Assembly: GCA_000320545.1 (NCBI GenBank)
Contig: ADNK01000257.1
Coordinates: 1-64,000, forward strand
Source: Bigelowiella natans CCMP2755
Taxonomy: Eukaryota; Protista; Cercozoa
Direction of reading: 5' to 3'
Length of the DNA: 64,000 nucleotides
Shown: positions 42,294-54,107 of the stretch, piece after piece
Numbering within the stretch: position 1 is the first letter of the stretch
How the letters are laid out: every line of letters begins with the position of its first letter
Position numbers and translations under genes: made by a program
Notes under the pieces: generated by a model
Seen by the model: only the letters and a program-made list of their open reading frames with translations
Databases searched by the model: none
What the model was told of the DNA's origin: nothing

Positions 42294-44252
42294 ATGTCCA
42301 AAATCCTCGAGATCGAGTACCGGTAGATCTACGCGATGAATGATCATAAATTGATTATTGTTTATGTCTCTATGTAAAAATGTCCTTGAATCTACCACGG
42401 GGTGAAGGCCCATCTACCGTACAGGCTCTAATTCGAAAGAGGGGAAGGGGACGCTGGTCCTGGCTGGCAAGAACAGGCCTGTCTCAGGTACATGGGAGCC
42501 TTCAGATCCCCATGGGTTCCTGTTTGCTCAGCTAATAGTGATCATGCGCGAACGATTGCAAGTCCAATGGCTCTAGTTGTGAAATGATACACGTAGTCAT
42601 AATTCTTCTTCCAGGATGAATCCTTCTCTAAGCCAAAGCATTGGCATCGTTGAAGCCACTGATGAAGGTGGTCGTAGCCCTTCTAAGGAAAATGAGAAAG
42701 AAGTCCCCAATGTGCCCAACTTCACCAAAGACGTTGATAAGAAGGAAAATGTCGACACTTCGGCATCCATCGATGATATTGTGAGTCAAATCACCAAACT
42801 CTCGATCAAAAAGTCCGACACAGAAGAAGATTCCAAAGGTCATAAAACTTCTGGAGAGGGTTAACTATTTGATTTAGTGTTTCTCATATGCAACAGTGAA
42901 AACGGCTTTTACATGGGATAGTCGGTGCCTGAAACACGAGGCGAACCGTGACCATCTAGAGAAACCGGAAAGAGTGCGTAAATAAGCTATCGTATTCACT
43001 ATTATTTCTCTCACATTTTACATATTGCCTAGGTAGTGGAGATTTTAAATGAAATAAAGCACCAGGGCCTTTTCTCGAAGTTACAGATGGTGGAGGGGCG
43101 TCTGGCAAGTAAGGAGGAGTTGTGTAGAGAGGAGGGTGGATATGGTCCTCACACGAAAGACCATGTCAAAACAGTTGATGATTCCGTACACCTCACCTTC
43201 AAGCCTAGAGTAAAAAGCGAGGACGATCCGGAAGACTCCAAACTGTATCCTCCTTGTCACTACATAGATTCCGACACATACGTAAATGAATACTCCAACA
43301 TTGCTGCGAGGACAGCTGTTGGTTGTGTGCTGAACGTAACAAAATCTGTTCTAGAAGGGAGCGCTACAAATGGGTTTGCAGCCATACGCCCCCCTGGCCA
43401 TCATGCCGGGTTCCACAACTTCAGTGGATTCTGCCTTTACAATAATGTTGCTGCAGCTGCAAAATATGCGAAGGAAAAATTTCCTGAGATCTGCAAGAAG
43501 ATTCTGATACTTGATTGGGATGTTCACCACGGAGATGGAACTCAACAGATATTTTATGAAGATCCCAGTGTGCTATTTATTTCTATCCATCGATTCACGA
43601 AAGATTTTTTCCCCTGCACAGGACGAGCGAGCGAAGTTGGTAAGGGTCGTGGAAAGGGCTATAACATCAATATACCGTTAGAACAGGCTGGGCTTGGAAA
43701 TCAGCATTATGCTGCAGTTTTCAAGCACATCGTTATTCCAGTGGCCCAAAGATTTTCGCCCGACCTCATCCTCATTAGTGCAGGGTTCGATAAACTATTT
43801 ATTTTCTCATTTCTTTAATTAACTGAAACTCTCTTTAGATTCGACTGCGTCGTAGGTGACCCTGTTGGAGGAATGAATGTACCAAATAAAAAATACAATG
43901 ATTATAAGCTTCTTTCCTAATTATGATACTTTTCAATGGCTAGGTCACTCCTGAGGGTTTGAAAGCACTTACTGAAATGCTAATGGCCCCGGAAATACAG
44001 AAAGATGGCCGAATTGTAATGGTCTTAGAAGGGGGCTACAATACTAAGATGGTCGCTAAAGCTGCGACTCGTTGTCTAGAGGCTCTGATGGGACACCACG
44101 GACCTCAACTGGATCCCATAAGTATTGATCGAGAAAATACAACGGATGGCAAATTTTCGACTACAATACAGAATTGTCTCCGAGTTCACTCCCGATATTG
44201 GCCTTTGAAGTATGAAATTCGAAGATCTTCGAGGAGACCCAAAAAGGCTTAG
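42294..44252 (+). CDS. Class II histone deacetylase (HDA1/HDAC6-like, single catalytic domain)
   Basis: HLEKPERV, RPPGHHA, GFCLYNNVA, ILDWDVHHGDGTQ, SAGFD, GDPVGG, VLEGGY. 5' exons uncertain. Confidence 0.93.
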
Positions 44253-45095
44253 GATGAAGATGTAATATATAGGTTTGCCGCCTGTGCTCACAGTGCATAT
44301 CCTAGTATCCGATAATTTTTACTGCCTTGTACTCTATACTGCTTTCATACATTCTAGTTTCGAGACATAAGAAATAGTGAAAGTATAGTAAATTGTGCGA
44401 GAGGTTCGAGAGTGAGGCATGAATCAGATCAAAAAGAGTAAAGGCTTGAAAATTGTGTGAAGAGAACAGCAGGCGCAATGCTCCTTTGAGCGATGTCTCG
44501 TACTTTACACGCTGACGAATATGTACGTAGATTGTTCATAAAATTGAAGTAGATGGACACCAACAAGAAGCCTCACTGTTGGTCGTTTATATGTCGCGCA
44601 CAAGCGATTTATCACATTACGTCAAAGCCTTGCACAGCTATTATATGCGGTGTATGTGATATCTATGTGATCACAGCTCAAGCTTTTTAAGAGCGCACCT
44701 ACCTACATGCATATGTACGATGTACACGACAGGTAAAGCACCAAAGCAGCTGCCTAGTATGCATGTTGCACGCATTATACGCATGTATGTACATAGGCGC
44801 TACGACATAAAAATCATGCACACATGTAGTAAAAAGCACTGCTAGACTATCGTAGCCACAACGTGTGCAGCCACAAATGTTATTATTATACTTAATCGCA
44901 TCCGCTTCGTTATCATCACACAGCAGCATCGTGGCATCTAGGCATGAGAACATGATCATTATTATACTTGTTCATTGGTTTCGCACCATATCACCTTTGT
45001 TGAATAGGTACCGAGACTACTTACTTGACCACGAGCGAACAACATGCAGAACTAGCAAATGAACATCATCAGGCTACACATTCGTATAGCATGAA

Positions 45096-45421
45096 TGTAG
45101 CGCGTACCACTACGCGGGCACAAGTCACGTGCGACAACAAAGGGGTTGTCGCGGATATAGAATATAGATAACGTAGATATTAATACAGCATAGGCACGTG
45201 GGTTCCGGCGGGACTCATGGCAGCACACCGGAAGTGTGCTGCCCCACGTGCGGCGGCATTCGCGAAAGCTTCGCGAATGATTACGCAGTGCACGATTTAA
45301 TAAAAATATAATCTTTAATAAAAATAAACACAACTCTTCAAAAGGAAGCAAACGTGCCTTTCCCCCCCCCTGCCTACTTGTGCACGTAGCGCCTCGGCCT
45401 GTGAACACCTTACGCGCAACA
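45096..45421 (+). repeat. 5' LTR
   Basis: tgtagcgcgt...gcgcaaca, identical to 50486-50811. Confidence 0.97.
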
Positions 45422-45426
45422 ACCTT

Positions 45427-45444
45427 TGGCTTCCACACACGGGA
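45427..45444 (+). promoter_or_regulatory. Primer-binding site (tRNA 3'-end complement)
   Basis: TGGCTTCCACACACGGGA begins 5 nt after the LTR end. TGG complements the tRNA CCA. Cognate tRNA not identified. Confidence 0.7.
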
Positions 45445-45460
45445 AACGATTTGACTAACA

Positions 45461-48400
45461 ATGTCACAGCAGCTAGAAGAACAGCAGGACTTTGGCTCGC
45501 AGGCCGTGCAAGGGCACGAGCAGAAACAGGAAAGGAAGGGCGATACGGACGCTAAGGAAGGAGGAGGAACACCTCCACAGGCACCGCCGGGACCAGCACC
45601 CGGGATTAAGAAAGCAGATGCAGCAGCAGAGGCACTGGAGAACTTCTACGAGGCGGACGACGAGGACGTGGCCGCCGAAAGCAAGAAGGTCGTAATGGCA
45701 TTACGAGCCTTGCGACCCAGGGCGAGCAACTACGCCAAACTGAAAGTATCGATAGAATACAAGTATCAGACACATGATGTTTGGGCAGCTATCATGCAGG
45801 ACATCATGGATTACGAAGCAGACTTACCTCCAGAGTGGGCAGCTTTGTTTAGGAACGACGGGGGTCTGGGCGCCTCGCGGGGGACGACCCAGAGCACCGT
45901 CAAGCAGCAGCAGCCGGTACAGCGGAACACCCAGTTCATGTCTGTTAAAACAGCACCGGTTATGATAACGAAATACAACGGGAAAAGAGGTGAGGCAAGG
46001 AGGTGGTGGAAGAACGCTAGGAGTATACTCTGCGACTTTACCCCTAACCCCACCGAAAACGACAAGCTCAAATGGCTAGCTATAATAAAGCAAGCCATGG
46101 ACCTTTACGAGACAGGCAGGACCCGGATCAGGCAGCTAGAGAAAATACACACTACAGTTAGTGGGCTACGAGACGTTGAGGCGATAATGAAGGCTTTTGT
46201 AAATGAACAGGATGCTAACTCCCTACCCCAGGCTATTAGAAAATACAGAGCAATGATGCAGCATGAGAGAGAACCTGTTAGAGACTTTGCCACGCGCTTC
46301 CAGGATATGATCGACGAACTACATGATTTTAATTACAACACAGGTGATGATCAGGCAAGGTTTGAAGAGTTCAAGTTAAAGATAAAGGAATCCACTTACG
46401 TTACGGAGAAAGGCTACACCACGATGGAGGCAGCAGTGCAGGCTATATCCCTACGCGAGCAGGAGCAGGACCGCAAGTTTACCAGCCCTAAGGTACCTGG
46501 CATAGGAAACATTAACGCTATTAAGCCGCAGCGAGACTGGTACAAGGACAGGGAAGGTAACCGACGTTGCGGATACTGCTCACGTAAAGGGAAACACACC
46601 GCTAAAGACTGCAGAGACAGGAAAGAAGGACGACCCAGGATGACGATCAGGCAGCTCAACGAACACTACGAGAAGTTAAAGAGAAAGAAAGGCAGAGGAC
46701 AAGGATATAACAACAGCAAATGGCAAGGCAGCAACAACGGGAAGAACAATAAATATAAGAACAAAAAGCAGAACAGTATCAATGCTATACAGCAGCAGAT
46801 AAACGGAATATTAGATCACCTTAAGCAGGCGCCGACGAAGACAGCAGTACCAGCAACGCAGGACCAAGACAAGCCCATGACCCTAGACGACATAAAGAAC
46901 TTAGGAGTATGCAACATTAATGACGAAGACGCTAACAGGACTATCAAAGTTGCTATGACCAAGGTTAAAGTTAAAGACAGCTACGGAGACTACAAGAAAC
47001 TACCTGCCCTTTGGGATAGTGGCAGCATGCCGAAGTCCTTCATAAGCCTAAGCACAGTAAGAAGGTTAGGACTATTGGATCAAGTGACTAAGAAAGAACG
47101 TAAATATGCTCAAGCAGACGGAAGCTCTTCCATGAAGACCGTCGGTGAGCTAATGCTAAAGCTACAGATACCTGGCAGCGACGCGGAGACCCAAATCAAG
47201 ACCCGAGTAGCCATGACTTTATCCATGGAACTACTCCTCGGACAGGATGCCCTAGAAAAATTAGGGGGGATCATATCATTCTACAATCACAAGATATACT
47301 TTGCTAAGTTGCCAAAGAAGTCAGGCAGGACCATCAGCCAGAACATGATACGGCTTGACGAGTGGACCTCTGAGTCAAGCGTTAATGCGTTAGAGTTTAT
47401 GGACCTAGCGGACAACAAGCTACCTACACCTACCGAGCTACGGAAGAAGAACCCCGGCAAGACCATCCGACAGATAACGGAGCTACTGGACAAGACCCCC
47501 CCAGCTGATGATTGGGATATCGACAAAGGCAAAAAGTACATTAATAAAATATTAAACGAGAAGTACTCTGACATCACCAAGCCGACGACGAAGCCCTCCA
47601 GCAAGCTTACCCCAGTAAAGATCGAGCTAAAGAAGGGATACGAAGAGTGCATCATCAATGACCCAGAACATAGGCGACCGGAAGCGGACTGGGAAAAGAT
47701 AGAGTGGCAGATCAATGAATGGGCAAAGGAAGGGAAGATAGAGCCAAGCAACTCACCATGGAACGTGAGACATGTGCTAGCTAAGAAACCTACTTACCCT
47801 TTCTTCCGCCTGGCGCACAACTTCATCCGCCACAACCGAGTAATAAAGAGGATCCAGACACCTACACCAAGGATAGATGACGTTATTGAACACGTCATAG
47901 GATACAAATACTACTCTTCCCTAGATAAAAATGAATCATACATGCAGACACCCATCCACAAAACCTCCCGCCCCATTACCGCGTTCTCCAGCAGGCACAG
48001 GAAGTGGCACTTCGTCGTATTCCCTTACGGCCTAAGCATATCAGGGGATGCGTTCAGTAGTCAGAACTACAGGGCATACACACATGATGGGATGGCGTCT
48101 GTGTTGTGGGTGTTTGTGTTTGTGTATGTGGATGATGACATAATATGTACCAACACAGTCGTCGCTCAGATCTTCCTCCTGGAAAATATATTTATTAGGT
48201 TTGCACACTTCGGTTTTACTATTAGACTGCAGAAGTGTACATTCCTAGCTACAAGAATCAAGTGGTGTGGATATTACCTGGAGCAAGGCCGCATCACCCC
48301 AAACCCCGAGAAAGTAGCAGCACTACAGCAAGCCCCTAAACCTAAGAATGCAAAGGAGTTAAAGTCATTCTTGCAGACTGCAGCTTGGATACTACGTAGG

Positions 48401-50434
48401 TTCTCCCCTACCTACGCTAGGACTGCAGCTGCTTTTACTACTGCTTACCGGAAGGAGAACTCTGTAGGCCTCAGCTTCGCTAAGGTGTGGGCCAAGGCTG
48501 GCCTTGATGCCCACTTCGATAACCTAATAAAGTTATGCAGCAACACCCTATTGAATGCTAAGCTAGACACTACTAGACCAGCTACCCTATGGACAGACTG
48601 GTCTAAGCTAGGTATGGCTGCTGTACTTACCCAAGACCAGCAGATCATACGGGTGTGGGGCAGGGCCTGCACAGCAGCTGAGGCCAAGTACAGCCCTACA
48701 AAAGGAGAGTATAAAGCCATGACTGAGGCGCAGAGGAAACTAAGATACTACCTGCTGTCGGTGCCCAGCTTCACCTTAATGACTGACCACAAGCCCCTCC
48801 TAGGCATCGACCGCAAGCTCGAAGCGCCTAACGATGAGTATGCAGCTATGAGGGCGGACACGGAAGAGTTTAGGGACAAGAGGACAGTGGTCTACGCACC
48901 AGGAGACAAGCAGCTTGCTGACTATTTCAGCAGGCTGTTCGAAAAGAAAGTCCCTACCCAGGTCACCCCTATGGTTAACGCGATTACCTTCGAGGACGGC
49001 GACTTCCTGCCTGAGCCAGAGGAGCTCCAGCACCTTCAAGAACACCTGGATAAATACAAACACAAGCATGAGGTACTTAGTGATAGGATATATGTATACA
49101 CTAATAATGTTAGGCGTACCTACGTGCCACGGCGGACCAGGGGAGCCCTTCTCTTTACCGCCCATGGACCTGCACACGTAGGAGAAAACCATATCACTGC
49201 TCTACTCTACCATTACTACTGGCCCTACAAGCTAAAAGAGATAAGGACATACCTGCGTGGCTGCAGGTGCTCCAGCTTGAAGGCGGCAGGCGTCGCCACC
49301 AAGGAGTCCAGCAAGAGCCGTGCATCTAAGAAAATCAAAGCAAGGAACTTCTTAGATATCGTGCAAATTGATGTTTATAAGTACGATGGCTATCACTACC
49401 TTACCTTCGTTGATGTGGCCACTGGAAAGTGCTGGGTTAAAAAGATTATCAAGGTCAACGTTGCTAAGAAGAACAAAGGCTTATATAAGCAGAGGCTTAC
49501 TAACTGCTACCGTACCTGGGAGTCTGAGCTCCAGGCTATCCCTGATGAAGTTAGCATAAACAAGATACCAAAGAAGTTACATGTGGATAATGAGACCTCT
49601 CTTCTACAGCTACCACACCCTAATATTGATGCCTCACCTGTATACTATGCCCAGTCCAACTCCAAGGTAGAGCGACTCCACCGCACCTTGGCCAACCTAA
49701 GCAGGATAAATAGCACCACACCAGACAAGATACAAGGGTTAGTAAACGACACCTTCACGTCTGGGGGAGGTATCAAGGATAAGGAGAGGGAAGAAGGCGA
49801 CGACAACGACGACGATACCGAGAGCGAAGACGAGAAGGTCCCGTACGATGGCCGAGTTCTAAAGGAAGGACAGTATGTTAGGGCCAAGGTAAATCTGAGA
49901 TCGAGAAATAAACAAGACCCCTTCTGGGGTGGCGTTGCAAAGGTTACCGAGAGGAAGGGGAGGAAGCAGTACTACATCTATGATGGGAACAGGGTCACCT
50001 TGCGCCACATCAGTCACCTAAAGAATTATGATATCGGTGAGAAGCTCCTAGAGGATGTTAAAGTAAACCCTACTGTGTGGGAGCGAGCAATGCCTTGTTT
50101 AGGACCCCGACCTAAGTTCGATGTGGAATATGGAAACAATAAGGTCAGGGTGAACGACGATTGGCGCATGAAGATTGTCTATCTAGGCTACCCTGGATTA
50201 CGAAATATGGAGAGGGTAGCTATGAAAATAAAGGACGGAAAATATCAGCTACTCTACCTAGCTGTTCCCGACTTACCCTTTGAGCACTGGTATAAGGTCC
50301 TGGGGGACCTTGATGCAGAGGGCTGGTATGGACACGAACCTAAGGACGAAGGTGAGTTCTGGGTAAGCGACAAAGGAGATAAGGTTAGAGAGGAATCTAT
50401 TACCTGGTGGTTGGTGAAGTTCCGAAAGCGATGA
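45461..50434 (+). CDS. Gag-Pol polyprotein (Gag, zinc knuckle, aspartic protease, RT, RNase H, integrase, extra C-terminal MTase-like domain)
   Basis: 1657 aa, uninterrupted. Motifs: CGYCSRKGKHTAKDC, LWDSGS, YVDD, TDWS and TDHKPL, HGPAH..CRC, IVQID..HVDNE..SKVER, SH3-like GQYV..RHISHLK. Confidence 0.96.
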   Translation: MSQQLEEQQDFGSQAVQGHEQKQERKGDTDAKEGGGTPPQAPPGPAPGIKKADAAAEALENFYEADDEDVAAESKKVVMALRALRPRASNYAKLKVSIEYKYQTHDVWAAIMQDIMDYEADLPPEWAALFRNDGGLGASRGTTQSTVKQQQPVQRNTQFMSVKTAPVMITKYNGKRGEARRWWKNARSILCDFTPNPTENDKLKWLAIIKQAMDLYETGRTRIRQLEKIHTTVSGLRDVEAIMKAFVNEQDANSLPQAIRKYRAMMQHEREPVRDFATRFQDMIDELHDFNYNTGDDQARFEEFKLKIKESTYVTEKGYTTMEAAVQAISLREQEQDRKFTSPKVPGIGNINAIKPQRDWYKDREGNRRCGYCSRKGKHTAKDCRDRKEGRPRMTIRQLNEHYEKLKRKKGRGQGYNNSKWQGSNNGKNNKYKNKKQNSINAIQQQINGILDHLKQAPTKTAVPATQDQDKPMTLDDIKNLGVCNINDEDANRTIKVAMTKVKVKDSYGDYKKLPALWDSGSMPKSFISLSTVRRLGLLDQVTKKERKYAQADGSSSMKTVGELMLKLQIPGSDAETQIKTRVAMTLSMELLLGQDALEKLGGIISFYNHKIYFAKLPKKSGRTISQNMIRLDEWTSESSVNALEFMDLADNKLPTPTELRKKNPGKTIRQITELLDKTPPADDWDIDKGKKYINKILNEKYSDITKPTTKPSSKLTPVKIELKKGYEECIINDPEHRRPEADWEKIEWQINEWAKEGKIEPSNSPWNVRHVLAKKPTYPFFRLAHNFIRHNRVIKRIQTPTPRIDDVIEHVIGYKYYSSLDKNESYMQTPIHKTSRPITAFSSRHRKWHFVVFPYGLSISGDAFSSQNYRAYTHDGMASVLWVFVFVYVDDDIICTNTVVAQIFLLENIFIRFAHFGFTIRLQKCTFLATRIKWCGYYLEQGRITPNPEKVAALQQAPKPKNAKELKSFLQTAAWILRRFSPTYARTAAAFTTAYRKENSVGLSFAKVWAKAGLDAHFDNLIKLCSNTLLNAKLDTTRPATLWTDWSKLGMAAVLTQDQQIIRVWGRACTAAEAKYSPTKGEYKAMTEAQRKLRYYLLSVPSFTLMTDHKPLLGIDRKLEAPNDEYAAMRADTEEFRDKRTVVYAPGDKQLADYFSRLFEKKVPTQVTPMVNAITFEDGDFLPEPEELQHLQEHLDKYKHKHEVLSDRIYVYTNNVRRTYVPRRTRGALLFTAHGPAHVGENHITALLYHYYWPYKLKEIRTYLRGCRCSSLKAAGVATKESSKSRASKKIKARNFLDIVQIDVYKYDGYHYLTFVDVATGKCWVKKIIKVNVAKKNKGLYKQRLTNCYRTWESELQAIPDEVSINKIPKKLHVDNETSLLQLPHPNIDASPVYYAQSNSKVERLHRTLANLSRINSTTPDKIQGLVNDTFTSGGGIKDKEREEGDDNDDDTESEDEKVPYDGRVLKEGQYVRAKVNLRSRNKQDPFWGGVAKVTERKGRKQYYIYDGNRVTLRHISHLKNYDIGEKLLEDVKVNPTVWERAMPCLGPRPKFDVEYGNNKVRVNDDWRMKIVYLGYPGLRNMERVAMKIKDGKYQLLYLAVPDLPFEHWYKVLGDLDAEGWYGHEPKDEGEFWVSDKGDKVREESITWWLVKFRKR

Positions 50435-50477
50435 AGGTCTAAGGGAATAAGGAAGGAAGGAAGGAGCAACGTGACTT

Positions 50478-50485
50478 GGGGGAGG
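50478..50485 (+). promoter_or_regulatory. Polypurine tract
   Basis: GGGGGAGG directly abuts the TG of the 3' LTR. Confidence 0.8.
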
Positions 50486-50811
50486 TGTAGCGCGTACCAC
50501 TACGCGGGCACAAGTCACGTGCGACAACAAAGGGGTTGTCGCGGATATAGAATATAGATAACGTAGATATTAATACAGCATAGGCACGTGGGTTCCGGCG
50601 GGACTCATGGCAGCACACCGGAAGTGTGCTGCCCCACGTGCGGCGGCATTCGCGAAAGCTTCGCGAATGATTACGCAGTGCACGATTTAATAAAAATATA
50701 ATCTTTAATAAAAATAAACACAACTCTTCAAAAGGAAGCAAACGTGCCTTTCCCCCCCCCTGCCTACTTGTGCACGTAGCGCCTCGGCCTGTGAACACCT
50801 TACGCGCAACA
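50486..50811 (+). repeat. 3' LTR
   Basis: Identical to the 5' LTR. Confidence 0.97.
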
Positions 50812-51105
50812 TGAAGGCAAACATCATCGGTCGGTGAATTGGGCTCTACGCACAAGCTAGCGCACAGGAGCATGTGTATTTTACCCTCATGGGCTTTGAG
50901 AAGACAGTGCTAACGTGGGATTCCGGCATGCGTGAAAATGTGACGGCGGGCAACGTAGTTGGCCGCGGTGGGACGGCAATAGATGGTTTTCGCAAAAGTT
51001 TTTACAACAACTATTGGAGTAACGGAATTGCCAACTTGTAGAAATTTGTAAACTCATACGCTTTCGCAAGTTTCGACAAGTTTTTCCAATATAATTTCGG
51101 GGAAG

Positions 51106-51705
51106 GTGGTTTATTTTTCGGTGACAGATTTGAACTGCCTTCTCTCGAGGGAACGCCTGATGGGAAGGAAAAGGCGGCGGCAGATGGTGATGTTGGCAGT
51201 GGTTGCGGTGGCGGTGGCCAACAAGAGACAGCGACTAGACCCTATTCCCATTCCTGCTCTGCGCATCGAATCAGATCTCGAACGCAAAGGATGGAACGAT
51301 GACCATTTGGTTCGGTGGTGTCGCTTCACAAGGAGTGAGATGCTCCGCATTGCACGAGCATGTCGCATTGGTCAGTGGAACTGGACCTCATCACGTGATG
51401 AACACTCGTGGCTCGAGGGCATGGTCCTCTTTTTACGTCGTCTTGCATGCCCTTGTGAGTGGGACGAACTTGTTGAGACTTTCGGTAGAAGTCCTGGATC
51501 CACATCCCGGATTTTCAAAGACGTGCTCCTTCGCATGTTTCCATCGTGTGAGGACCAGATGTGCTTGCACAGAGATCATTTGATGAACAATCTGGAACGT
51601 TTTGCAGACGCAACCCGCCGCAAAGGTGGTGAATTCTCTCAGAGAGACACCGTTGGACACATCGACGGCACAATCAGAAAGTGTTGCAGACCGACAATTA
51701 CAATT
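51106..51705 (+). pseudogene. DDE_Tnp_4 (Harbinger/HARBI1-type) transposase, N-terminal part, hypermutated
   Basis: RFTRSEM..LEGMVLFLRRLACPC.W..L..FGRS..SRIF..RKGG..VGHIDGTIRKCCRP (family pattern LRRLAYP...G[FY]IDGT...RP). Later catalytic motifs not found. Confidence 0.85.
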
Positions 51706-52800
51706 GGTGCACATGCGCATGTGTGGCATGGCGCGCGCAGTGTGTCGCACGCAGCGTGTGCCTCAACCGACGTGCACGTGCGCAGTGCATGTGCACATGC
51801 GCATGCGATGCATGCAATCACAAGCTGGCGCGCGCCACGCGATGCCGTTGCAATGCACGTCGTCGCATCGCAATTCTCATGCACAACAATTGCAGCTAGA
51901 GCCAGAATTGCAGATTCAATTGGGGCCAGAATTGTGGCCAGAATTGTGGCCAGAATCATCGCTAGAATCATGGCCGTGATTGTTGAAACATCCCACATTG
52001 CCATGTGCATGCACGGCAATCTAGCAATGCAGCCGATGCAATGGACACAGTGACAGCATGCTCAACGTGTGCATGCATGCACATGCACATGCAAAAGGTT
52101 GCTCACAAGAACAAGGAAGGTCGCCCGAGTGGATGCAGTCTTGGCATCGGCATGGTGACAGCATGCACAGTGCGCACATGACACATGACATTGCATGTCC
52201 ATGATGAGGAGGATCATGAGGACAAAAACATGTGCAGAAACAAGCAAGCCAAGGCAATTGAGGAATCCAAGGAGTCCAACTTGCACGTTGTCTGCAATTG
52301 ATTCGGGTTCAGTCCACATCACTCTCGGTTCATCATCAATCCTAGCTTCACGATGCTTTCCATCATCGTCTTCATTGCAGTGAGCATGTTTTGCTGCATG
52401 TCGAGCTGTTGGGGTTGGGGTGACATGCACAACAAAGAAATGTCAAATCCAGAAATGAAAATAGAAGACACAGAAAAATGGGACATTCATAAAAAAGAAA
52501 CATCATGTGGAATTCATAATATTTTCATAATTTTATTGGAATCGAATTGCTATTCTATAACTTTTCCATACTATGAATGTAAATCTAGATCATCTACGAA
52601 TACAAACAAAATCAAATATCATTCTGAAAATTTGAGGATTGCATTGTTATCTACAAAAAATATGAATATGAATAAACATGAAATTATTTGTATAGCATAT
52701 GTCATTCCAACTATTAGTTTATTACATAATCATTTTCATAACAAAAAAATAAATATACAACATTTAATGACAAAACAATAAAAAAATTTAACACAGATGA

Positions 52801-53424
52801 TCAAAGCATGTTAGAAGTTTTAGAAGATATATTTGAGTGCACTCTGTCTGTAGTCCATGCATGCACAAGGTCAGGGTGAGGGGGGTTGACCTGCAACTTG
52901 GCTTCATGCTCCCTGCGTTCCCGATCACGCACCGCATCAGCTGCAGCCTTTTTTTCCTCAAGCTTTGCCTTTTCATTGAATTCCCATCGTCTGTAATCAT
53001 ATTCTGCAGTCTTGTCAGTGAGAGAGAGCAACACTCTCTCTAGGAATCCCCGTTGTTTCTCTTGTTCTTCACGCTGGAATTCTCGTTCCGATGTGCGATT
53101 TTCCCGTTCGAACTCAGCTTCGTTTTTCATTGCATCTGCTATGGCACTGAGTCCTGCACCGAGCGAGCTCCTGCCCCCCCTGCCAATGGAAACCCTCCGA
53201 ACCAAATGGTCATCGTTCCATCCTTTGCGTTCGAGATCTGATTCGATGCGCAGAGCAGGAATGGGAATAGGGTCTAGTCGCTGTCTCTTGTTGGCCACCG
53301 CCACCGCAGCCACTGCCATCATCAGCATCTGCCGCCGCCTTTTCCTTCCCATCAGGCGTGTGGTCACCCCCCAATCTTCCCGGGGGAGAAGGCAGTTCAA
53401 ATCTGTCACCGAAAAATAAACCAC
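52801..53424 (-). CDS. Transposon accessory ORF: transposase-derived N-terminus fused to a charged coiled coil
   Basis: N-terminus through ..GWNDDHLVR is nearly the same as the transposase ORF. It then continues EAEFERENRTSEREFQREEQEKQR.. Confidence 0.55.
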   Translation of the reverse strand: MVYFSVTDLNCLLPREDWGVTTRLMGRKRRRQMLMMAVAAVAVANKRQRLDPIPIPALRIESDLERKGWNDDHLVRRVSIGRGGRSSLGAGLSAIADAMKNEAEFERENRTSEREFQREEQEKQRGFLERVLLSLTDKTAEYDYRRWEFNEKAKLEEKKAAADAVRDRERREHEAKLQVNPPHPDLVHAWTTDRVHSNISSKTSNML

Positions 53425-54107
53425 CTTCCCCGAAATTATGTTGGAAAAACTTGTCGAAACTTGCGAAAGCGTATGAGTTTACAAATTTCTACAAGTTGGC
53501 AATTCCGTTACTCCAATAGTTGTTGTAAAAACTTTTGCGAAAACCGTCTAATGTTCTTCATGTCACTATCTCAGCCGTTGGTAAAACCGTAGGAATACAC
53601 GTGTGTGTTTGAATGTAACCTTAGTACACGTGCCAATGCGTAGTTGCACACTTTGCTCCTTGTAACAGATAACAAGCCCGTTTTTCAGGCGTCGGAATCC
53701 TTTAGAGTTTGTCGAATTCCTTTTGGATTTCCAATAATTCCTCGTTGTCGCAGGTAGAAAATGGGACCAGTGTTGGACACTAGGAGAGTTTTTTTGCTGG
53801 AAACGTTCAGTTGTGCAGAGCTAAGGTAGAAACCGCTGATCTTAGCTTTGGCTCGATGTACTTGATAGGTTTTGTTGTCGCAGGCTAAAATACCCCCCAT
53901 TACTAAACTTGAACGAAGATCATGTTCTATTCTGTGTTCTGGATTACCGCGCAGCAATGGGTGCTCACATATACGCCCTGGTTGATACAGAAGCCGAGGA
54001 GAAAAGAGGAAGAGGCCTTGGCACACAATTGTGTGATTCGTACAAATCCCAAACAACTCTTTCTATATTGTATTCGATATTTTGGGTGGTTTCCATCTTT
54101 GTGAAAA

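Follow-up and report, generated by a model that had tools for sequence, protein, structure and literature searches.

Among retroelements, Dam-like domains were long known only from DIRS elements. A preprint posted in May 2026 (Fernandez-Moreno et al., bioRxiv 10.64898/2026.05.21.726589) describes in its main text a group of long terminal repeat (LTR) retrotransposons, the DAM-LTRs, whose Dam domains are derived from DIRS and which comprise five lineages (Chlorophyta, Chloro-Ochrophyta, Ichthyosporea, Pyropia, and Euglena). According to the same main text, the screen for DAM-LTRs applied hmmsearch to EukProt at E <= 1e-5, and the Asn-Pro-Pro triplet is kept in almost all of the DAMs; Bigelowiella, Rhizaria, Cercozoa, and chlorarachniophytes do not appear in that main text. 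Here we describe a Ty3/gypsy-type LTR retrotransposon at positions 45096 to 50811 of a 64,000-nucleotide stretch of DNA from Bigelowiella natans CCMP2755 (contig ADNK01000257.1, positions 1 to 64,000 of the forward strand; assembly GCA_000320545.1), referred to below as the window. The polyprotein of this element ends in a domain, here called the tail, which is predicted to have the fold of a phage DNA adenine methyltransferase and in which another conserved motif stands at the position of the catalytic loop.

The B. natans element is DAM-LTR-like in architecture, as judged from the main text of the preprint. It is a Ty3/gypsy-like element with LTRs and the order protease, reverse transcriptase, RNase H, integrase (PR-RT-RNH-IN), its pol carries a domain with a prokaryote-type Dam fold, and, like the ichthyosporean lineage, it lacks a chromodomain. 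It differs in two operational criteria of the group, detection by hidden Markov model (HMM) and the Asn-Pro-Pro (NPP) triplet; the tail falls outside the hmmsearch cut-off of E <= 1e-5 because it gives no match to PF05869 at E <= 1. With the DIRS1 group the element shares a retroelement-borne Dam-like domain, but it differs in having direct LTRs, a 4-bp target duplication, and a zinc-finger, DDE-type integrase. In DIRS elements a tyrosine recombinase stands in for the DDE integrase, the repeats are inverted or split, and target duplications are lacking. Tyrosine recombinase families were absent from the Pfam matches to the polyprotein at E <= 1, and assignment to DIRS was rejected on account of the direct and identical LTRs, the 4-bp target-site duplication, and the matches to Integrase_H2C2 and to prototype foamy virus (PFV) integrase. 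Chromoviruses offer a positional parallel, since their integrase likewise ends in an additional module related to chromatin or DNA, past the conserved C-terminal segment, but the fold is unrelated, and targeting, which is established for chromodomains (and is taken up in the discussion of the preprint), is presumed for the B. natans tail. No chromo-family match was found with Pfam at E <= 1 and the tail is predicted to fold as a methyltransferase, and a chromodomain was rejected on both grounds. Outside transposable elements (TEs), METTL14 is a pseudo-methyltransferase with EPPL in place of DPPW. Like METTL14, the tail keeps an N6-adenine methyltransferase fold in which motif IV has been exchanged, and its role is presumed to lie in binding or scaffolding, but METTL14 belongs to the MT-A70 family and is encoded by a host gene, whereas the tail is a TE domain with no evident catalytic partner subunit.

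A predicted adenine methyltransferase fold at the end of the polyprotein

Translation of window positions 50054 to 50434 on the plus strand gives DVKVNPTVWERAMPCLGPRPKFDVEY...DWRMKIVYLGYPGLRNMERVAMKIK...LYLAVPDLPFEHWYKVLGDL...WWLVKFRKR*, ending in a stop codon and forming the last 126 residues of the gag-pol open reading frame (ORF) (residues 1532 to 1657; coding positions 50054 to 50431). This is an exact match to the peptide quoted in a first-pass annotation of the sequence, and it lies at the C terminus of the 1657-residue ORF. The annotation had taken the peptide for a degenerate DNA adenine methyltransferase-like domain and had tied that reading to the recovery of a methyltransferase fold and of profile similarity to Dam; both were recovered, the former by AlphaFold2 (AF2), Foldseek against BFVD, and VIA-align, and the latter by hhalign against PF05869 proteins.

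The AF2 model of the tail, calculated from a 20-sequence alignment, has a predicted local distance difference test score (pLDDT) of 95.9 and a predicted TM score (pTM) of 0.89 and shows seven strands and four helices in an alpha/beta arrangement. A Foldseek search of BFVD yielded 12 matches at E <= 1e-3 (TMq 0.60 to 0.67; probability 1.00), at the top of which stand phage DNA N-6-adenine-methyltransferases with E values from 1.5e-5 to 9e-4. Six of the 12 matches are named, five as phage methyltransferases and one as an uncharacterized protein, and four of those five bear the name “DNA N-6-adenine-methyltransferase” or “Phage N-6-adenine-methyltransferase”; PCIF1-like giant-virus proteins occur lower in the list. 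VIA-align re-scoring, which was limited to Foldseek's top 1000 PDB chains, gave first place to the cap-specific adenosine N6-methyltransferase PCIF1/CAPAM (Z 8.1; root mean square deviation 3.5 Å; 121/133 residues), followed by the adenine-N6 rRNA dimethyltransferases KsgA/Erm/Dim1 (Z ~6), E. coli Dam (Z 5.3), and CamA (Z 5.1), and S-adenosylmethionine (SAM)-dependent methyltransferases account for 50 of the 50 rows listed. The weight of the structural evidence rests on this homogeneous list and on the BFVD result, and the prediction that the tail has the fold of a phage T1-type (PF05869) DNA N6-adenine methyltransferase is supported by them. An AF2 model of T1 Dam itself, calculated from a shallow 16-sequence alignment, had a pLDDT of 47.3.

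Profile comparison with phage T1-type Dam

Phage T1 Dam, which scores 236.5 bits on PF05869, served as the Dam reference and positive control. Scans of genome contigs for its relatives gave 0 loci and then 1 locus, and 24 diverse PF05869 proteins were cut from bacterial genomes, 26 of the 401 genomes searched having a match; the Dam alignment used in the final hhalign comparison held 28 PF05869 proteins. When the tail family was aligned to the single T1 Dam sequence, P was 0.1, which is not significant, but the register was already the same as in later comparisons. P fell to 0.013 against 16 T1-like Dam sequences, and the 34-sequence family aligned to the 28-sequence Dam alignment with a score of 28.9 (P 4.8e-4) over 77 columns. 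Column shuffles of the Dam alignment scored 11.7 +/- 2.1 with a maximum of 18.4, such that 0 of 200 reached 28.9 and the real score lies about 8 standard deviations (SD) above them; a reversed-alignment control scored 15.5. Greedy alignment (mact 0.01) extended the colinear match over 131 columns. All hhalign runs gave one register, in which family l-N-P lies on Dam W-x-T-P, V-W-[IL]-G-Y-P-G on V-W-[LM]-N-P-P-Y, V-P-E-L-x-C-E-x-W-Y on L-v-P-x-x-t-x-W-F, and F-W-v-D on G-R-i-x-F. The colinear match to Dam with GYPG at the position of NPPY, which the first-pass annotation had proposed, is by these measures above chance, and distant homology of the tail to phage T1-type PF05869 Dam is supported by the profile comparison. 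The two share a predicted fold and the order and register of their conserved blocks, but the tail is shorter (~125 residues versus a 169-position model), has GYPG for NPPY, NP for the TP motif, and FWvD for GRi.F, is fused to a retroelement integrase, and lies under every sequence-library threshold.

Several results weigh against kinship with Dam. The hhalign probability was 32%, and PF05869 gave no match at E <= 1 to either the polyprotein or the tail, the gathering score of 28.1 bits not being reached. Neither PHROGs nor NCBIfam returned a family for the tail at E <= 10, and PDB sequence searches with the tail, both as a single sequence and as a profile, gave chance matches only (collagenase, SEM1). 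Foldseek against the PDB likewise gave 0 matches at E <= 1e-3, its best rows being SAM methyltransferases, and VIA Z values of 5 to 8 are “middling” by the tool's own scale. In addition, only 1 of the 20 members of a second alignment, A2, matched PF05869, and weakly (E 0.032), 0 of 31 further relatives matched it at E <= 0.1, the ESM Atlas held no usable match to the tail, and a word-indexed search found no precomputed PF05869 domain in the longer proteins retrieved with the family alignment. The middling Z values, the empty Foldseek search of the PDB, and the blindness of Pfam to the domain would all fit a generic Rossmann-like alpha/beta fold that does not descend from a Dam methyltransferase. 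We consider such a coincidence very improbable, given that the profile-profile score stands far above the column shuffles in the predicted motif register, that the top BFVD matches are PF05869-type phage Dam and not generic Rossmann proteins, and that N6-adenine enzymes rank first among the PDB neighbors.

Conservation of the tail and replacement of its catalytic loop

A phmmer search with a 133-residue query against 1.84 billion representatives found 47 proteins related to the tail at E <= 1e-3. The 18 more distant relatives that were fetched are 29 to 39% identical to it, and several others listed are about 40% identical. In all relatives that extend beyond the matched part, this part is situated at the C-terminal end or close to it, and the longer relatives also carry reverse transcriptase, RNase H, and integrase zinc-finger domains. 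Two relatives are other B. natans gene models (38% and 36% identity) and the remainder come from metagenome or run assemblies; one is labeled as a Nitrospirales metagenome-assembled genome, which we take to be a binning error. The tail is thus a conserved pol domain that ends gypsy-like polyproteins both in B. natans, where three or more diverged subfamilies have it, and in eukaryotic contigs from the environment.

Compared with full-length relatives, identity is 30 to 39% in the tail, 24 to 26% in gag, 28 to 33% in the protease, and 35 to 50% in the reverse transcriptase, RNase H, and integrase, so that the tail is more conserved than gag, similar to the protease, and less conserved than the other enzymes. 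Our family alignment contains 34 sequences, namely, the window copy and 33 relatives, including the two further diverged B. natans subfamilies. P79, W86, W98, and W125 are invariant in it (34/34), and P54 and W110 (33/34 each) and G55 and G100 (30/34 each) are nearly so. The level of identity together with these invariant positions argues that the tail is under purifying selection and is not a decaying remnant. The alternative that it is a decayed pseudogene was rejected, the tail being conserved across all 34 aligned members.

The loop that corresponds to catalytic motif IV is GYPG in the window copy (residues 1576 to 1579; positions 50186 to 50197, plus strand), as located by the hhalign register and the AF2 model. 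In class I methyltransferases, motif IV follows strand 4, and in the model of the tail GYPG forms a loop that links a strand (48-51) to a helix (56-68). The 28 PF05869 proteins have NPP[YF] at this position without exception (26 NPPY and 2 NPPF), whereas N-P-P is found in none of the 34 family members. Half of the family (17/34) has GYPG, and the other loops are AYPG, GHPG, GRPG, GFPG, GCPG, GWPG, WYPG, GYPT, NYVG, SFPL, and SFPF, with Gly at the first position in 27/34, Pro at the third in 33/34, and Gly at the fourth in 30/34. Because the loop is conserved as G-[YF]-P-G, it appears to be a stable replacement of the kind expected of a pseudo-enzyme and not a product of decay. In enzymes with (D/N/S)PP(Y/F/W), the target amino group is held by the polar residue that opens the motif, and the flipped base is stacked against the aromatic residue. 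Since both of these residues are absent from the family loop, we hold with reasonable confidence that methyl transfer by the tail is unlikely. The first-pass annotation had called the domain probably non-catalytic and had suggested looking for relatives with an intact NPPF or NPPY; the family-wide absence of NPP, set against its presence throughout the PF05869 sample, is consistent with that call. Its word “degenerate” is slightly misleading in that the loop has not decayed and another conserved motif stands there.

Certain observations speak against a loss of catalysis. Erm and KsgA enzymes function with N-[IL]-P-Y, and in the tail the loss is read from only one motif. D30, at a motif-I-like position, is kept in 25/34 members, so that SAM binding may survive. 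The most divergent environmental relatives (P0053, P0056, and P0067) have S-F-P-[FL] at motif IV, together with an insertion of about 15 residues before the FW motif, and these members could stand between NPPY and GYPG as intermediates. A separate point, which bears on the role of any TE Dam domain, is the report in the preprint's main text that expressed eukaryotic DAMs, even those bearing NPP, produced no N6-methyladenine (6mA) in E. coli. The tail might still be catalytically active, with an unorthodox motif IV, and methylate adenines in element cDNA or in an RNA:DNA intermediate, as the preprint proposes for DAM-LTRs. In its favor can be cited the retained fold and colinear motifs, the maintenance of D30, a loop that is conserved and not decayed, the resemblance of S-F-P-[FL] in three divergent relatives to the S/N-x-P-[YF] of active enzymes, and the argument, made in the preprint's main text, that a 6mA-related advantage accounts for the retention of TE Dam domains. 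We nevertheless judge continued activity to be unlikely, since the first loop position lacks Asn, Asp, or Ser in 30/34 members (Gly in 27), Gly takes the place of the aromatic fourth residue in 30/34, the GR that is conserved in Dam GRi.F has been lost as well, and NPP[YF] is kept by every PF05869 protein sampled.

A possible role in integrase tethering

We favor, with moderate confidence, the reading that the tail is a Dam-homologous fold, likely non-catalytic, through which the integrase would be tethered to DNA or chromatin. In such a scheme, a Dam-derived pseudo-enzyme fused to the integrase C terminus would act as a nucleic acid- or chromatin-binding module, and this module would tether the pre-integration complex or bias its choice of target, a part that in chromoviruses falls to the chromodomain, which sits at the equivalent position. 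Binding or targeting is suggested by the C-terminal position on the integrase, the conserved loop, and five near-invariant tryptophans. The invariant tryptophans and the conserved loop further suggest, from the alignment, a preserved pocket whose possible ligands include SAM, a flipped adenine, 6mA, or something else; the tail might also bind DNA or RNA:DNA hybrids. Its function would be either tethering to DNA or chromatin or the reading of adenine or 6mA. Among the papers covered by a literature search, no report linking Bigelowiella with 6mA or AMT1 was found, and TEs of B. natans are described as lying in an H3K9me3/H3K27me3 state in a chromatin preprint (bioRxiv 10.1101/2025.03.17.643675).

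The tail might instead have no nucleic acid-related role and be an appendage to the integrase with a structural or regulatory task, for example in multimerization, polyprotein processing, or particle packaging. Conservation as a pol domain would fit such an appendage, DNA binding by the tail is presumed, and pseudo-enzymes are often scaffolds, as is METTL14 in the METTL3-METTL14 pair. Against this, the integrase C-terminal additions of other gypsy lineages, the chromodomains, are targeting modules (a point also made in the discussion of the DAM-LTR preprint), and the best structural neighbors of the tail are all nucleic acid adenine methyltransferases; a purely structural role therefore seems to us improbable.

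Structure and age of the element

The element is bounded by two 326-nt LTRs that are 100% identical and spaced 5390 nt apart, as found by repeat search and alignment and confirmed in the raw sequence. The 5' LTR, with TG...CA termini, occupies positions 45096 to 45421 and the 3' LTR positions 50486 to 50811, both on the plus strand, as are the ORF, its domains, and the polypurine tract. The target-site duplication TGAA, which has no strand, was read from the sequence at 45092 to 45095 on the left and at 50812 to 50815 on the right. Between the LTRs lies a single, intact gag-pol ORF of 1657 amino acids (45461 to 50434), followed by the sequence GGGGGAGG (50478 to 50485), which adjoins the 3' LTR and from its position would be the polypurine tract.

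Pfam places protease, RVT_1, RT_RNaseH, and Integrase_H2C2 on the ORF in that order, which is the gypsy order. The aspartyl protease is a weak match (residues 513 to 599, positions 46997 to 47257; PF13975, E 0.0022, under the Pfam cut-off). The reverse transcriptase lies at residues 798 to 939 (47852 to 48277; PF00078, E 2.4e-8, 34.4 bits versus a cut-off of 29.6) and the RNase H at residues 1018 to 1118 (48512 to 48814; PF17917, E 2.1e-14; PF17919, E 2e-10), the RT_RNaseH match with E 2.1e-14 spanning residues 1036 to 1118. The integrase begins with an H2C2 zinc finger (residues 1222 to 1269, positions 49124 to 49267; PF17921, E 0.0022), which is followed by a catalytic core that we describe as divergent because no rve-family match was found on the polyprotein with Pfam at E <= 1; the PFV integrase in the PDB matches the integrase region with E 0.004 (residues 23 to 128 of the sub-query). 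Between this core and the tail lies an integrase C-terminal segment, presumably SH3-like (residues 1460 to 1524, positions 49838 to 50032), which matches no family but is 42 to 52% identical to the corresponding part of three relatives (P0050, P0064, and P0021).

The identical LTRs, the target duplication, and the open 1657-residue ORF show that the element is a complete and very young Ty3/gypsy-type LTR retrotransposon. Its closest database proteins are at least 17 near-identical Bigna1 (JGI) gene models with 99 to 100% identity, and we take the window to be nuclear DNA of Bigelowiella natans and the element to be multi-copy there. In all four of the four DNA-like public runs it occurs, with 0 differences, as one cyclic contig of 5420 nt, each contig opening the circle of one LTR and the internal part at a different point (a 5390-nt period plus a 30-nt overlap). 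Such contigs are what an assembly graph yields when a multi-copy LTR element collapses, and they are indistinguishable from one-LTR circles. Three B. natans gene models (P0008, P0009, and P0010) join the C-terminal part of the element to host domains (PF10520; PF00397, WW; and PF25427 plus PF18384), which suggests insertions near or within genes or else chimeric models. Upstream of the insertion, an ORF on the plus strand (43959 to 44252) that ends about 840 bp before it resembles, by eye only, the C-terminal part of a histone deacetylase (…MVLEGGYN…).

Antisense introns in RNA contigs

Contigs from RNA libraries of four marine metatranscriptome runs are 95 to 100% identical to the element and cover positions 45335 to 50440, with no coverage at 45096 to 45286 and at 50444 to 50811. 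The contigs of three runs start at 45335 to 45347, some 30 to 45 nt past the AT-rich, TATA-like stretch that the 5' LTR contains, and this interval is a candidate start of sense transcription (U3/R border).

The same contigs carry at least 26 joints along the element. Each of the 15 that are listed skips 56 to 165 nt, and 14 of these, after shifts of the cut, are GT..AG introns on the minus strand, antisense to gag-pol. Most donors resemble GTA[AT]G, and pyrimidine tracts are present at the acceptors. Of the 15 listed joints, nine were found in more than one run (two or three, from as many different studies), and none of the joints was found in the four DNA-like runs. Three such introns lie at or within the part that encodes the Dam-like domain, all on the minus strand, at 50018 to 50073, 50112 to 50276, and 50340 to 50403, the first two being common to runs X15 and X16 and the third being found in X15 only. 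No long ORF was present in a rebuilt 609-nt stretch of the spliced antisense RNA, which has 99 open codons and then many stops.

Splice motifs were assessed against 500 synonymous-codon shuffles of the gag-pol ORF. On the antisense strand, GTAAGT (5 versus 1.3 +/- 1.1), YAGGT (26 versus 15.2 +/- 2.9), and GTA (120 versus 102.6 +/- 5.1) are all enriched, whereas splice motifs on the sense strand do not differ from the shuffles, and no antisense enrichment was seen in the nine other ORFs of at least 220 amino acids in the window. Antisense introns have reportedly been described in Drosophila TART. Those of the B. natans element may have been selected for, or they may result from antisense RNA being spliced promiscuously.

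Adenine mutation and neighboring repeats

The first-pass annotation had remarked that the genome appears to mutate adenines in repeats. We found no support for this in the window: the LTRs are identical, the copies in the DNA-like runs show no differences, and a nearby inverted pair has no adenine bias. The seven listed differences between the RNA contigs and the element are five C>T or G>A, one A>G, and one T>A. The inverted pair lies to the right of the element and consists of head-to-head copies of about 285 bp at 51050 to 51335 (plus strand) and 53200 to 53480 (minus strand), which have an ORF start in common (MVYFSVTDLNCLL...RKGWNDDHLVR) and then diverge; the copies differ at a handful of sites, which show no adenine bias. 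The longer ORF of the pair (51106 to 52053) resembles, by eye only, the N-terminal part of a Harbinger/PIF-type transposase.

Conclusions

A more far-reaching version of our proposal would hold that the integrases of an entire clade of gypsy-like elements, spread over a rhizarian alga and uncultured marine eukaryotes, carry a captured and catalytically dead, tryptophan-rich Dam “reader” (of adenine, 6mA, or AT-rich DNA) that steers integration, and that the element has in addition evolved dozens of antisense introns through which antisense RNA is chopped by the spliceosome. We regard this combination as doubtful; if true, the reader would be an adenine-based counterpart of the chromodomain.

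The recognition of Dam domains in retrotransposons is recent, and according to the main text of the DAM-LTR preprint even those with NPP gave no 6mA on expression in E. coli. The tail described here indicates that screens based on HMM thresholds undercount TE Dam domains, and, if the assignment of the host by nearest matches is right, it adds a supergroup, Rhizaria, that is not named in that main text. The element is young, apparently active, and multi-copy, and it resides in an alga for which the chromatin preprint (10.1101/2025.03.17.643675) reports cultures and chromatin immunoprecipitation data. A fold that stays under constraint in a lineage whose sampled members have all exchanged the catalytic loop argues that TE Dam domains owe at least part of their selective value to something other than methyl transfer, and the B. 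natans lineage would represent a natural separation-of-function case, in which binding is set apart from catalysis.

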